A stretch of DNA of 23,530 bases, from the UHGV virus genome UHGV-0262101; one strand, 5' to 3'. Numbering within the stretch: the stretch's first letter is position 1; each line of letters begins with the position of its first letter. The notes under the pieces are model-generated. The model ran no database searches and was not told the DNA's origin. It saw only the letters and a program-made list of their open reading frames with translations. Below, piece after piece: positions 1 through 4,746 of this stretch. The position numbers and the translations under genes are program-made. The stretch is from a virus.

Positions 1-207
1 AAAGTAGTACTTGTCATTTTTAAGTGACGTATTCAGCAATTAAAATATATGCCTGTTGATCAAGATTCATGCACGCTGTAAAATAATCGTTTTGTTTGTG
101 TTGCATGATTTAAAATGAATAGAAGATTATTTTTCAAAACACTTGCATCTTTGTCTGCAGTCATTCCTTTTTATTCAATTTCTAAGTTTTCAAACAGGAT
201 GACTAAT

Positions 208-2586
208 ATGCCTAATATAACCACAAATGTTGTAATTGGGATGCCATCGCAACTCTTCACTATGGCTCGCTCTTTTAAAGCCGTAGCTAATGGCAAAATT
301 TATATCGGTAAAATTGACACTGACCCGGTAAATCCTGAAAACCAGATTCAGGTTTATGTAGAGAGTGAAGATGGTTCTCACATTCCTGTTTCACAACCAA
401 TCATCCTTAACGCTGCTGGTTACCCTGTATATAACGGACAGATTGCCAAGTTCGTAACTGTGCAAGGCCATTCTATGGCTGTATATGATGCTTACGGTGC
501 TCAGCAGTTCTATTTTCCTAATGTACTGAAGTATGATCCTGATCAGCTGCGGGACCAATTAGAAGACATTGATGGCGCTAAGAAGTATCCTGAGTTGCAA
601 ATTGCTCGATGGAGAGATAATGGTGATGTTCGTGGATTTGGTGCTGTTGAAGGTGGTGTTTTATTATGTGATGAATCGTTTAAAGACGCAGAAAGAACTG
701 GGATCGATGTATATGTTCCAGAGGGAAGGTGGCGATTATCGACTCCTATGATCTTGGGTCAGAAGGGAAAATATTATGGTCCAGGATTACTTATTTTTGA
801 TAATGCAGAGTGGTGGAGGAGAGGAGGCTCATCAGGTTCTGAATCTATAAATGAGCGTTATACATTGTTCTATAATTATAATGATAAAGGAGATGTGACA
901 TTAACTTATGACGGGGTACCACAGAGTTTTACTTGGGTTGATGACAGGACAATAGAAGCTCCTGGTAGCTCAGTTAATGTAAGTGTCAGAATTAATATTG
1001 CCAATGGTTATTTAAAACTTGGGCCAGTGGCTGAATTTATTCGATCTTACAATCTTTGTGCCAATGGTGGTGGTGGTGAAAAACTAACCCCGGAGTTACC
1101 AGATCCAACAACAGCGCCAAAGGGTTACGATAATACAGCATTTGGCCCGCGAGCGTTACAGGATCTGACCGATGGTGTTAACAATACTGCCATTGGGTCA
1201 AAATCATTGATGAGTAATATTTCAGGAAATAATAATACCGGAGTTGGCTTCCTGACTTTGTATCGATGTACTGGAACAGGAAACACTGCTGTAGGTTCTG
1301 TTGCTGGCGAGTGGCTAACAACCGGGAGCTATAACTCATTCTTCGGACTTGGTGCAGGAGAAAAAGTTAAGGGCGGTAGATATAACGTTGGAGTTGGCTT
1401 TGAGGCCATGGCTGAGGCTCCAGATACTATTTATACAGTTGCAGTAGGATATCGGGCGAATGGAAATCCTGGAGATTACTCTCAGTCTAATAGTGTATAC
1501 GTAGGCTCTTTTGCCGGAGACTTCTCTATTGGTTCAAATAACACCATGGTTGGCTACAGAGCGGGAAACTGTCTTGGTGCTGCGGAGGCAGCAGGTACAG
1601 GGACTGGGCATGATAATGTTGGCATTGGAATGTTCGCAATGCGCAAGAATCTTGCCGGGAATGAAAGCGTTGTTATTGGTGCTGGAGCGGCAACCGAGTC
1701 AACAATTACAGATAATGTTGTTGTAATTGGTTATGGTGCATGCGGTGAAACTCAAACGCTAGGTTCATTTACCGTTTCTATTGGTCACATGGCACTTATA
1801 GCAGCAACGGGTGATAATAATGTTGCGGTTGGACAGCAGGCATTAAAAGGAACAACATCGGGAAGCAGTAACGTTGCAATTGGGTCTGGCTCTCTTGTCA
1901 CAAATACAACCGGCGCATTAAACACGGCTATTGGACATAATTCAGGTAGATTAACTCAATCAGGGGAAAGCACATCATCACTTACCAACACAACAACTGT
2001 TGGCAATGATGCAAGGGTGTCAGGAAGTAATCAGGTGCAGCTTGGCAATTCTTCCACAACGACATATGTATATGGAACTGTGCAAAACAGATCTGATGCG
2101 CGTGATAAAACAGATATCCGAGATACTTTGCTGGGGATTGAATTTATCCTTGGGCTTCGTCCTGTCGATGGTCGCTGGGATATGCGTGATGATTATATTG
2201 ATGTTATTGAAAAGACAAGAATTGTACCAAAAAAAGTAGAACGAGATGTTGATGGAATTACTATATCAGCTATTGAGAATGTCGAAGAAAAATATCTTGA
2301 AGTAGTGCAGAAAACTCCTGACGGCAGTAAAAAACGTCAACGATACCATCACTGGTTTATTGCACAGGACGTATTGAAACTGTGTGAAAAATTAGGTGTT
2401 GAGTTCGGTGGGCTACAGCATCACTTGAAAAATGGTGGGGATGATGTTTACTCACTCGGTTACGATGAGTTTATCCCACCTATTGTTAAATCAATTCAGC
2501 AATGCTGGGAGAGAATTGATAATATAGAAAGACGTATCGAAGAACTAGAGATGACATTAAAAAAGAATAACTTAAATAAAATATGA
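208..2586 (+). CDS. Tailspike / tail fibre protein: P22-type N-terminal head-binding domain, Gly/Asn-rich repeat central domain, C-terminal S74-type intramolecular chaperone domain
   Basis: Track ORF 115..2586. The N-terminus ([43 protein letters not shown]...YDPDQ) matches the conserved head-binding domain of P22/Sf6/HK620-family tailspikes, which begin M-x-x-I-T-x-N-V-V, so the start is placed at ATG 208 (AGGA about 9 nt upstream) rather than 115 or 199. The middle is rich in N-x-A-[IV]-G repeats. The C-terminus carries SDARDK (Ser-x4-Lys), typical of autoproteolytic S74 chaperone domains. Confidence 0.85.
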
Positions 2587-2608
2587 TATTCAACATAAAA
2601 CAATATGA

Positions 2609-2633
2609 AATCTGCGTCGAAAAGGCGCAGATT
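2609..2633 (+). terminator. Weak hairpin downstream of the tailspike stop
   Basis: 8-bp inverted repeat aatctgcg / cgcagatt with a 9-nt loop, followed by a T/A-rich stretch (gttaattaat). No clean U-tract. Confidence 0.3.
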
Positions 2634-3091
2634 GTTAATTAATATGGTTATGTATGATTTTTCGATGTAATTAACTAAGAGAATAATGTTGTCATGATGT
2701 TGGTGAGAAAATATTCTTGCACACAAAGCTTTGCACTGGATTGCAAGGTTTTGTGATATTCGATAGTTGTTAAGGCGGGTCACACCACCTTTTCATCAAT
2801 CCAATCCGCCCACCACTGCATCATTTCTCTGCGCTTAACGTAGCGGATGCCTCACTATCACACGGTGATGGTTCGTTACTGGTTTGCAGAATGGATAGAG
2901 AACTGAGGATAAAAAGATATCCCAAAACTCTAAAATCTCATCTTTAGGATTTGCAGACAGGTAGGCATGAACAGATACCTACGCATGAAGATGGAACTAG
3001 TCCGGATGCGATATTTTTGGTGATCACGTACATCATCAACGAAGAGCGTTATGGTGAGTTTTATGACTGCCCGGTGATGTGAAAATTGCGA

Positions 3092-3114
3092 TGTGTACCA
3101 AATTGTGTACCAAA
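3092..3114 (+). repeat. Two tandem direct repeats TGTGTACCAAA (putative integrase arm-type sites, P arm)
   Basis: tgtgtaccaaa at 3092-3102 and 3104-3114, same orientation, 12 bp apart. Confidence 0.6.
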
Positions 3115-3343
3115 CTAAAATCATAAACCATGAAACCCTTACCCATGGCTGTTCTCAGGTGGGGTGCGTGTAATCGTGAAAGAGGAAGGTAGGTTGTTTA
3201 TCTGTGTCTGTCATTGTCTAGCATTGTCCACTGTAGTTAATTAACTGTCTGTTATAACTCGAAAAACAACCCTTTTTTCACCTGAGTATGTCTACGAACG
3301 TCAAATATAGTTGTTTACTGTGCGCTGTTGTCCATGTGATATT

Positions 3344-3388
3344 GTGTACCAGATGTGTACCAAACCATTATTTCTGAGCGTACCAAAT
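3344..3388 (+). repeat. Three direct repeats of the same motif next to the int start (putative P' arm sites)
   Basis: tgtgtaccag 3344-3353, tgtgtaccaaa 3354-3364 and gcgtaccaaa 3378-3387. Same motif and orientation as the 3092-3114 pair. The last copy ends 8 bp before the int ATG. Confidence 0.6.
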
Positions 3389-3395
3389 ATTATTT

Positions 3396-4574
3396 ATGGC
3401 TATAAGCGACACAAAACTGCGTACTATTTATGGTAAACCATATTCGGGCCCACAAGAAGTGGCTGATGCCGATGGCCTCAGCGTACGAATTTCACCGAAG
3501 GGGGTCATCCAGTTCCAGTACCGCTATCGCTGGCATGGCAAGCCTAATCGACTTGGGCTTGGTCGATACCCATCCCTGTCTTTGAAGGATGCCAGACAGA
3601 TCACTGCTGACTTGCGAAAGCTCTATTTCTCAGGAACGGATCCACGCACCTATTTTGAAGAGAAGGTGGAGAACTCCATGACGGTCGCCCAGTGTCTCGA
3701 CTACTGGTTCGACAACTACGTCTCTACAACTCTCAGAGAAAAGACCCAGGCACTTTACCGATCAACGGTTATGAAGCGCATGCATGACGCCTTTCCTAAT
3801 CGTCCGGCATCTTCTATCACGGTTAAGCAATGGGTTGACCTGCTTACCGAAGAAGAAAGAGATAATCCACGCCGAGCAAGGCAGGTGCTAAGTCAACTAA
3901 GATCAGCAATAAGTTGGTGCATGCGGCGTCAGTTGATAGATAGTTGCGCAATTATGAGCATCCAACCAAGGGACTTCGGCTCCCGCGCTGAGGTAGGGGA
4001 TCGGGTACTGTCGTATCACGAACTGGCTAAGATTTGGCTTGCTATTGAAAGAAGCCGTGCGTCTACGTCAAATAAGCTACTTCATCAGATGCTTATGCTG
4101 TGGGGGGCGAGGCTCTCAGAGCTTAGGCTGGCAACAAAGACAGAATTTGACCTGCTGGACAACGTATGGACCGTACCGAAAGAGCATAGCAAGATGGGTA
4201 ATGTTATCCGTCGTCCAATCTTCGAACAAATTAAGCCTTTTCTCGAAAAGGCCATGACAACGTACAATGATGTTCTTTTCCCTGGAGAAGACATAAACAA
4301 ACCGATCAGCATCGCTGCAGCCAACCGATTCGTAAATAGAATAAGGGGAGGGATGGATCTAGGTTACTGGCGAACACATGATTTCAGAAGAACGCTTGTT
4401 ACACGTCTGTCCGAGATGAATGTCGAGCCTCATGTTACTGAGCGAATGCTCGGTCATGAACTTGGCGGGATAATGTCCGTGTACAATAAACACGACTGGA
4501 TAGAGGCTCAGCGCAAAGCTTATGAGCTTCACGCTGATAAATTGTTCTGGCACATCAGGAGCATTTCTGGTTAA
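3396..4574 (+). CDS. int: Tyrosine site-specific integrase, P4 / CP4-57 type
   Basis: 392-aa ORF. N-terminal arm-binding-like region (GLSVRISPKGVIQFQYRYRWHGKPNRLGLGRYPSLSLKDAR) and C-terminal catalytic region with HDFRRT, LGH and the SVYNKHDW tyrosine region. Confidence 0.9.
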   Translation: MAISDTKLRTIYGKPYSGPQEVADADGLSVRISPKGVIQFQYRYRWHGKPNRLGLGRYPSLSLKDARQITADLRKLYFSGTDPRTYFEEKVENSMTVAQCLDYWFDNYVSTTLREKTQALYRSTVMKRMHDAFPNRPASSITVKQWVDLLTEEERDNPRRARQVLSQLRSAISWCMRRQLIDSCAIMSIQPRDFGSRAEVGDRVLSYHELAKIWLAIERSRASTSNKLLHQMLMLWGARLSELRLATKTEFDLLDNVWTVPKEHSKMGNVIRRPIFEQIKPFLEKAMTTYNDVLFPGEDINKPISIAAANRFVNRIRGGMDLGYWRTHDFRRTLVTRLSEMNVEPHVTERMLGHELGGIMSVYNKHDWIEAQRKAYELHADKLFWHIRSISG

Positions 4575-4746
4575 CGCCACCGTTAAGAATCCACCCTTCA
4601 ACAGCTTCACGAAGGTATGATTTTGGGTGGGTTCTGACTGGCTTCGGAAATCCGTGCCGTTTGGTATAGTTCCAGATTGTCTGACGTGATGAAACACCGA
4701 GCTTGTTCATCACTTCTTTCTCAGGAATCAGGCTGGTATCGGTCAT
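4555..4746 (-). CDS. xis: AlpA-family DNA-binding protein (putative excisionase / recombination directionality factor)
   Basis: 63 aa, MTDTSLIPEKEVMNKLGVSSRQTIWNYTKRHGFPKPV...EAVEGWI fits the AlpA/Xis pattern. Convergent with int, 3' ends overlap by 20 bp. Confidence 0.75.
   Translation of the reverse strand: MTDTSLIPEKEVMNKLGVSSRQTIWNYTKRHGFPKPVRTHPKSYLREAVEGWILNGGVNQKCS

Follow-up and report, generated by a model that had tools for sequence, protein, structure and literature searches.

The attachment site closest to the one analysed here is attP type 2851, for which a core of 13 bp (CGTAATCGTGAAA) has been published (PMC4159516) and is also given in GenBank annotations. Site type, 13-bp core and target, the sbcB gene, are already published and annotated in GenBank. 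In the records and literature on the type-2851 module, the original 2851 paper aside, only the 13-bp core and the sbcB target are described, and we found no annotation of arm sites or of a replacement sbcB start. A further point of reference is KplE1 (CPS-53) of E. coli K-12, in which attL overlaps the intS promoter and P'1 overlaps its -10 element, intS is repressed by IntS and by the RDF TorI, and GTTCG sites for TorI, with a 10-bp period, lie in attL just upstream of the -35 element (Panis et al. 2010, PMC2951348). Here we map an attP of ~300 bp, with its core, five probable arm sites, and candidate elements for the excisionase and the int promoter. The map of the arm sites and the conserved restoration of a gene 5' end may be unreported; they extend a known system and are not a new kind of site.

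The DNA analysed (the window) is a stretch of 23,530 nucleotides from the virus genome UHGV-0262101. Positions 3092-3387 make up, with high probability, the entire attP of a P22-like temperate phage whose integration module is of the 2851/Sf101 type (Table 1). A sequence-only reading of the same DNA had proposed a lambda-like attP with a 2+3 arrangement of arm sites and the P' arm next to int. The intact attP, the 2+3 arrangement and the placement of P' beside int are retained, whereas the geometry is not that of lambda. Near-identical DNA in mEp234 and HK544 is labelled in GenBank as 'attP; prophage attachment site (type 2851)', and identity to modules annotated 'attP type 2851' is 92-99%. 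Positions 2720-3395 are common to the phage genome records Sf101, mEp234, E212 and EC.P3 at 92-93% identity (megablast). The encoded integrase is 99.2% identical to that of phage 2851, 99.5% to that of Sf101 and 100% to that of EC.P3 (tblastn). Judged by the sequences of core and Int, the target and the boundary, the attP of the window is a member of the 2851/Sf101 type.

Table 1. Features of the window in and around the attachment site
Feature	Position	Strand	Description
Tailspike ORF	115-2586		823 aa; P22 head-binding domain, E 3e-63
Hairpin 3' of tailspike stop	2609-2633	+	10-bp stem, -16 kcal/mol, z -4.7
IntS/CPS-53-type integrase gene relic	2786-2836	-	Last 17 codons; tblastn
UmuD-like (S24 peptidase) pseudogene relic	2831-3076	+	tblastn
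P1 arm-type site (P-arm pair)	3092-3102	+	TGTGTACCAAA, exact
P2 arm-type site (P-arm pair)	3104-3114	+	TGTGTACCAAA, exact
sbcB 5'-end mimic	3155-3214	-	ATG 3214-3212; 11 codons to core, 3214-3182
Common core, predicted crossover	3170-3181		GTAATCGTGAAA, 12 bp
Block A, GTYCR-like motifs in 10-bp phase	3206-3245	+	3206, 3216, 3226, 3236
Block B, GTYCR-like motifs in 10-bp phase	3290-3336	+	3290, 3300, 3310, 3320, 3330
Putative int promoter	3314-3343	+	-35 region 3314-3320; TGn and -10 GATATT 3335-3343
P'1 arm-type site (triplet)	3343-3353	+	TGTGTACCAGA, one mismatch
P'2 arm-type site (triplet)	3354-3364	+	TGTGTACCAAA, exact
P'3 arm-type site (triplet)	3377-3387	+	AGCGTACCAAA, two mismatches
Tyrosine integrase	3396-4574	+	392 aa; Pfam; transcribed away from attP
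Excisionase/RDF candidate	4555-4746	-	63 aa; PHROG 66, E 1.9e-8

The core was located by comparison with integrated relatives. Records deposited in prophage form (2851, 1717 and many Stx phages) match the window only from 3170 onward, at 99% identity, and among the matches listed all 13 prophage-form Stx phage records start at 3170. When the whole window was compared with E. coli genomes, 8 of the 12 best chromosome matches likewise began at 3170, and none of the 12 spanned the junction. In a four-way alignment of attP, attL and attR of the ST131 strain ZH063, and attB of K-12 (alignment A2), the switch of partners flanks 3170-3181. These 12 bp, read on the minus strand, are codons 13-16 of E. 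coli sbcB (F13-H-D-Y16, FHDY). The published 13-bp core aligns to 3169-3181 with 12 of 13 positions matching; the first position is T in the window and C in the published core, so that identity with attB extends over 12 bp and not the published 13, and ST131 lysogens show that 12-bp identity suffices. The core is found 226 nt ahead of the int ATG, a position shared by every other type-2851 member. In phage 1717 the first 13 bp are annotated as a duplication caused by insertion, and the host flank of this phage lies inside sbcB in 5,423 of the 5,426 complete E. coli genomes.

The sequence-only reading had considered core and attB not identifiable from the window and had suggested tRNA or tmRNA 3' ends as places to look; comparison puts the core at 3170-3181 and attB within sbcB, a protein-coding gene, at its 5' end. 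A tRNA/tmRNA scan of the window was empty, so the tRNA-end idea does not apply. The search of host genomes that had been proposed as a check does find the core, with an identity of 12 bp instead of the 15-25 bp anticipated. On the left side of the core, GGGGTGCGT has its sbcB counterpart 12 bp deeper in the gene, and 3146-3214 aligns to SbcB residues 2-28 with a four-codon gap (tblastn); given these matches, the core region of attP looks like a captured and eroded fragment of the sbcB 5' end.

Strain ZH063 provides both halves of a split site. Its tailspike and P arm match window positions 2587-3198 at 99.2% and are followed by the native sbcB 5' end and then dacD (attR); attL, ~40 kb away, reads int, then P' arm, then sbcB. 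The arm on the int side is named P' because the left end of the prophage reads core, three repeats, int. It had been claimed that both arms are phage-derived, with a host-prophage junction named as the finding that would overturn this. The segment 2720-3395 is shared with phage genomes, similarity to prophage records starts at 3170, and the comparison shows phage DNA in both arms. The four-way alignment, together with the 12 best chromosome matches, most of which start at 3170 and none of which spans the junction, indicates an unintegrated configuration.

The same order of elements would be expected if the window were the internal P-core-P' junction of two prophages lying in tandem at sbcB rather than a free phage. 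Such junctions exist: in the chromosomes of O157:H7 MB9-1, Show KS 470-1 and STEC799, a tail fibre gene, nleG7, an attP-like region and int are contiguous, and the window carries no host flank that could exclude a tandem arrangement. However, these three known cases are only 90% identical to the window and have a lambdoid tail fibre and nleG7 context with no tailspike, and in none of the 5,426 complete E. coli genomes does the window's junction occur in one piece. Matches to 2587-3198, at 99.2%, run out on the sbcB side (attR), and those on the int side start at 3170. The phage records Sf101, E212 and EC.P3 share the order tailspike or moron, attP, int. We regard a tandem junction as unlikely. 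Because the tailspike and P arm occur in ST131 strains as one half of a split site, attR, the comparison supports a phage-form genome. The two forms named by the sequence-only reading, phage form or tandem-lysogen junction, are both real, the ST131 halves being far apart and the tandem cases numbering three.

We then consider the repeats on either side of the core, whose motif is also written (T)GTGTACCAAA. Five same-orientation copies had been reported; there are indeed five sites, all on the plus strand, three of them exact and two variants. The distance of about 230 bp given between the clusters was measured as 228 bp. GTAC is palindromic, so that the orientation of a site depends on its flanking bases. 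The P' sites, summarized as spaced 2-9 bp apart, lie inside the 53 bp preceding the int ATG, and P'3 ends 8 nt before it.

Repeats in this interval might be chance matches, or decaying duplications among gene relics that have no function, since the interval holds IntS-type int and umuD-like relics and is in this sense littered with the debris of earlier module exchanges. With up to one mismatch allowed, however, the motif matches the window 4 times against an expectation of 0.47, a count that did not arise in any of 100 dinucleotide-preserving shuffles. In addition, 5 of the 8 plus-strand GTACCA hexamers in the 23.5 kb fall inside this interval. Among Int relatives (79 loci retrieved, 50-100% Int identity), the int-proximal sites are kept at -50, -39 and -16 from the ATG, and in 12 relatives spanning that range of identity GTAC is invariant at all three P' sites while the flanks diverge (alignment A3). 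The spacing of all five sites was compared in five attP-form relatives, four with a 99-100% identical Int and L037 with an Int identity of 73%. Relative to the core start, GTAC lies at -75, -63, +176, +187 and +210 in the window, mEp234, HK544 and HK140; in Sf101 the P pair is offset by 1 bp. The five positions are the same in L037, the most diverged free-phage attP, whose overall identity of 55% breaks down into 71% in arm columns and 53% elsewhere. Conservation of position across different cores argues for a function of the repeats, and a chance origin is scarcely credible.

A functional alternative is that the repeats serve only as int operators, or as sites for the excisionase or a host factor, and have no role in a recombination architecture. 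The P' triplet has an operator-like look because its three copies are placed directly after a -10-like element, at most 53 bp before the int ATG. Yet two more copies lie 240 bp upstream, across the core, where they would be superfluous for a pure int operator; the spacing of this P pair is base-pair exact in a relative with a 55% identical attP, and the pair is present in the argW-type clade too. Int moreover has a dedicated arm-binding domain, and the KplE1 sites serve both roles. An exclusively regulatory role is very improbable on these grounds, although less so than a chance origin. Sequence conservation and analogy to described systems make the five repeats probable integrase arm sites.

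The integrase matches Arm-DNA-bind_3 (PF13356) over residues 4-85 (E 8e-18) and Phage_integrase (PF00589) over residues 204-366 (E 1e-16). Its PDB matches include the N-domains of CP4-like integrases (3jtz, 3ju0) and lambda Int (5j0n, 1z1b), and by sequence the arm-binding domain is of the CP4/P4 type. From this domain content and the lambda and KplE1 paradigms, we infer that the N-terminal Arm-DNA-bind_3 domain would bind P1/P2, 63-75 bp left of the core, and P'1-P'3, 176-210 bp to its right, while strand exchange within the 12-bp core would fall to the catalytic domain. Integration splits attP: at attR, the tailspike and P arm are joined to dacD and the former 5' end of sbcB, and at attL the P' arm and int lie beside the body of sbcB. 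The IHF consensus, searched as WATCAANNNNTTR or WATCARNNNNTTR, has no match on either strand of 2587-3420, a search that degenerate sites or other bending proteins could escape. The 4555-4746 ORF converges on int, with whose 3' end it shares 20 bp. It falls in PHROG 66, labelled 'excisionase and transcriptional regulator', has weak Pfam matches to AlpA and HTH_17, both below the cut-off, and has homologues annotated as excisionase or AlpA family. On this sequence similarity it is a probable excisionase/RDF.

The direction of int, transcribed away from att, requires that its promoter be located in P'. The putative promoter of Table 1, called by our own reading of the sequence, adjoins P'1 directly; a consensus promoter scan, which needs 9 of 12 matches, reported no int promoter. 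The block directly before P'1, which reads TG.GATATT/AATATT/GCTATT, is kept in relatives down to 59% Int identity (alignment A3). The KplE1-like layout predicts negative autoregulation of int, and by this analogy Int probably represses its own promoter.

Motifs resembling GTYCR recur upstream of and within this promoter. In block A, GT is invariant or at least 90% conserved at the motif positions (alignment A4), and relatives have the exact GTYCR motif at -169 and -159 from the int ATG. Block B overlaps the putative -35 region; its G is invariant at 3300, 3310, 3320 and 3330 across 10 relatives, and the exact motif recurs in relatives every 10 positions from -105 to -65. In several loci the observed number of GTYCR motifs was reached by none of 500 shuffles. 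The lag-10 autocorrelation of column conservation gave no significant 10-bp GTYCR periodicity (p 0.27), so that the lattice is only suggestive. By analogy, both blocks are candidate sites at which the AlpA-like excisionase would act.

Leftward from the same arm, the P' DNA contains a start for the target gene. In the free phage, the minus-strand mimic is a 19-codon relic ORF with the translation MTDTDKQPTFLFHDYTHPT followed by a stop, and the part upstream of the core encodes ATG and ten further codons (MTDTDKQPTFL). At attL of ZH063, sbcB is annotated as intact, with 474 aa, beginning MTDTDKQPTFLFHDYETFG where K-12 has MMNDGKQQSTFLFHDYETFG; the lysogen's gene stays intact in annotation because its new start codon and 11 codons come from the P' arm. 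A lysogen would thereby keep the full-length SbcB reading frame through a start supplied by the phage. An in-frame NTG (ATG, GTG or TTG) precedes the core codons by 11-12 codons in 10 of the 12 relatives compared, with a varying peptide; in the other two the FHDY search pattern gave no match. The in-frame start at the same place in these 10 relatives points to selection for restoring sbcB. The consensus scan, at its threshold, detected no leftward sbcB promoter, our own reading revealed no Shine-Dalgarno sequence, and a manual search for a leftward promoter shared by the window and L037 gave no conserved -10 or -35. Expression of the chimeric sbcB is accordingly putative.

The P' arm may be a two-way control region, which both rebuilds the 5' end of the target and supplies expression signals, a reading that we hold tentatively and at somewhat less than an even chance. 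Leftward it would provide the sbcB start and 11 codons or, in a sister clade, the 5' half of the argW tRNA; rightward it would provide an int promoter lying under arm sites and phased excisionase-type motifs. If this is true, lysogeny places a host DNA-repair exonuclease or a rare-codon tRNA under phage expression signals, and a chimeric sbcB expressed from such signals could alter the levels of exonuclease I in the host. Known attP sites of the intragenic or tRNA kind mostly restore the 3' end. As judged by sequence, the integrase clade considered here targets gene 5' ends (sbcB, argW) and carries replacement 5' ends. In the literature, the original 2851 paper aside, we found no description of 5'-end-restoring integration as a trait of an integrase clade. 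At the practical level, the base-level map could help to type Stx and ST131 prophages that occupy sbcB, and could guide use of the integrase as a tool.

The rest of the interval between the tailspike stop and the int start (2587-3395, 809 bp) records earlier states of the locus. It had been described as 810 bp with no credible ORF, which is right in substance, with the length corrected and two gene relics added. The only ORFs in the interval are 2930-3124(-), 2496-2783(-) and 2951-3082(+); none of the three matched Pfam, and neither of the two on the minus strand matched PHROG. The ORF 2930-3124(-), whose counterpart in Sf101 is annotated 'hypothetical protein', belongs to no Pfam or PHROG family and is treated as spurious because it is antisense to the umuD relic. 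The ORF 2496-2783(-), likewise with no Pfam or PHROG family, was set aside as well. The hairpin after the tailspike stop, which no shuffle of 200 matches in folding, is probably the tailspike terminator and lies outside attP; a consensus terminator scan left it unflagged because its T run is weak. A terminator-like hairpin on the minus strand at 3150-3126 was no better than shuffles (z -1.6).

The integrase relic is 94% identical to residues 368-384 of K-12 IntS (E 1e-7, tblastn) and also matches the 3' end of the vB_EcoP-611R6 int (megablast). Its sequence marks it as a remnant of a displaced integration module, and such an IntS-type relic beside the current module is an illustration of module swapping. 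The relic on the plus strand is 48% identical to residues 46-128 of HK140_028 (E 1.5e-18, tblastn) and has an internal stop; the homologous stretch of STEC799 is labelled in RefSeq as a frameshifted S24 peptidase pseudogene. An Rfam search of 2400-3600 at E up to 1 returned a single chance lncRNA match. The whole interval is composed of the probable tailspike terminator, two relics of earlier modules and the ~300-bp attP.

Compared with known systems, the window is closest to the module of 2851, Sf101, mEp234, HK544 and HK140, whose Int is 99-100% identical to its own. Identity is 99% to 2851 and 1717 over the P' arm and 92-93% to Sf101 and mEp234 over the entire attP; core position, sbcB target and the int-xis arrangement are shared with the type-2851 phages. 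In HK140 a span of 147 bp is annotated as putative attP. Sf101 carries an oacB moron, whereas in the window the tailspike stands directly before the relics. A more distant sister group comprises the Stx phages that integrate at argW (ArgO145, phi346 and Stx2a phages of O157 clade 8), with an Int identity of 56%. These have the same 2+3 GTAC layout, at -77, -65, +167, +178 and +202, an int that is divergent from the target gene, and a P' arm that carries the 5' part of the target. They differ in their core, which is ~24 bp of the 5' half of tRNA-Arg(CCU) rather than sbcB, and in the arm consensus, GTACA(N)A as opposed to GTACCAAA in the window.

The likeness to KplE1 is one of layout. In both systems int is transcribed away from att, the P' sites lie between the core and the int ATG, and a similar phased motif, GTYCR in the window, is present. 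However, IntS is only 22% identical to the window Int, and pairwise comparison of Xis with TorI gave no significant similarity (E 1.1), although both match AlpA and HTH_17 only below the cut-off; IntS and TorI were accordingly rejected as homologues at the sequence level. The targets differ as well, KplE1 using the argW 3' end in the same orientation as int and the window a protein-gene 5' end that is divergent from it, and the RDF gene of KplE1 lies at the far end of the prophage, whereas xis in the window adjoins int. By this analogy, the module appears to work like KplE1 and is not a sequence member of its family.

With lambda, the window shares a heterobivalent tyrosine integrase, which matches lambda Int structures distantly (E 2.5e-7), two P and three P' arm sites with P' beside int in the prophage, and an adjacent excisionase gene. 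The distances are reversed, with the pair near the core and the triplet far from it, and the arm sites of the window all have one orientation, in which they also differ from lambda. In further contrast to lambda, int of the window is directed away from att and depends on a promoter of its own within P', no match to the IHF consensus was found, and the gene that contains attB has its 5' end rebuilt. With its triplet directly before the int start, the geometry of the window is closer to the KplE1/P4-type layout than to that of lambda.

A substitute N-terminus for SbcB is encoded in the P' arm, and is listed below with the other features of the region. In lysogens, the resulting chimeric sbcB carries an intact-gene annotation (locus L009, 11802-13226), and the position of the substitute start codon was kept in 10 of the 12 relatives tested, across integrase identities of 59-94%. 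A promoter or ribosome-binding site for the chimeric gene was sought in the window, and none was identified.

Features in and beside the attP region (window coordinates)
Feature	Position	Strand	Remarks
IntS/CPS-53-type (argW) integrase gene relic	2786-2836	-	last 17 codons; 94% to K-12 IntS, E 1e-7
UmuD-like S24 peptidase pseudogene fragment	2831-3076	+	48% to HK140_028; internal stop
Substitute SbcB N-terminus	3155-3214	-	MTDTDKQPTFL
GTYCR-like motifs	3206-3245 and 3290-3336		two blocks, 10-bp period

Immediately left of the core, GGGGTGCGT (window 3160-3169) matches K-12 sbcB sequence lying 12 bp deeper in the gene (about 4806-4830 of L008), an offset equivalent to a four-codon deletion. On this sequence comparison, attP looks like a captured, eroded 5' fragment of sbcB. 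Position 3169 is T in the window and in the ST131 prophages and C in phages 2851, Sf101, mEp234 and HK544; with the T, attP and attB are identical over 12 bp instead of 13, a length at which lysogeny is still possible, as in the ST131 prophages.

Among IMG/VR loci, attL-form prophages with integrases 59-94% identical to that of the window were found beside diverged sbcB genes (L024, L027, L028, L036, L040, L042 and L055); core variants among them include GTAATCGTGGAA and GTAGTCATGGAA. Across hosts whose sbcB genes have diverged, the 5' end of sbcB therefore appears to be conserved as the integration target. An unbroken attP-like junction was also present within the bacterial chromosomes of O157:H7 MB9-1 (L007, 4001-4674) and STEC799 (L091), where it joins the tail fibre/nleG7 end of a lambdoid prophage to a 2851-type int, which indicates prophages in tandem at sbcB.

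In more distant relatives (Int 53-57% identical), which are argW-type Stx phages (ArgO145 is an example), attP contains the 5' half of tRNA-Arg(CCU), GTCCTCTTAGTTAAATGGATATAA (L059, L085, L093 and L094, the last being phi346; K-12 argW reference, L089 810-884). The tRNA is divergent from int, and integration of argW-type phages would swap the 5' end and promoter of the tRNA, not the usual 3' end.

The GTYCR-like blocks are similar to the GTTCG sites of the excisionase TorI in attL of KplE1, and the G at 3300, 3310, 3320 and 3330 is invariant among relatives; an autocorrelation test of the 10-bp periodicity was not significant. The int gene and a convergent excisionase-like ORF overlap at their 3' ends by 20 bp (window 4555-4574), and either of the two may be disturbed when its neighbour is transcribed.

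The tailspike (window 115-2586), which includes a P22 head-binding domain, gave a weak, below-cut-off match to the Peptidase_S74 intramolecular chaperone domain (residues 660-692, E 0.0013). Between its gene and the present attP lies the IntS-type remnant; an HK620/Sf6-like integration module was apparently replaced by the 2851-type module. The umuD-like relic ends 16 bp before arm site P1. In HK140, by contrast, the UmuD-like gene is intact, and overlaps the annotated attP of that phage.
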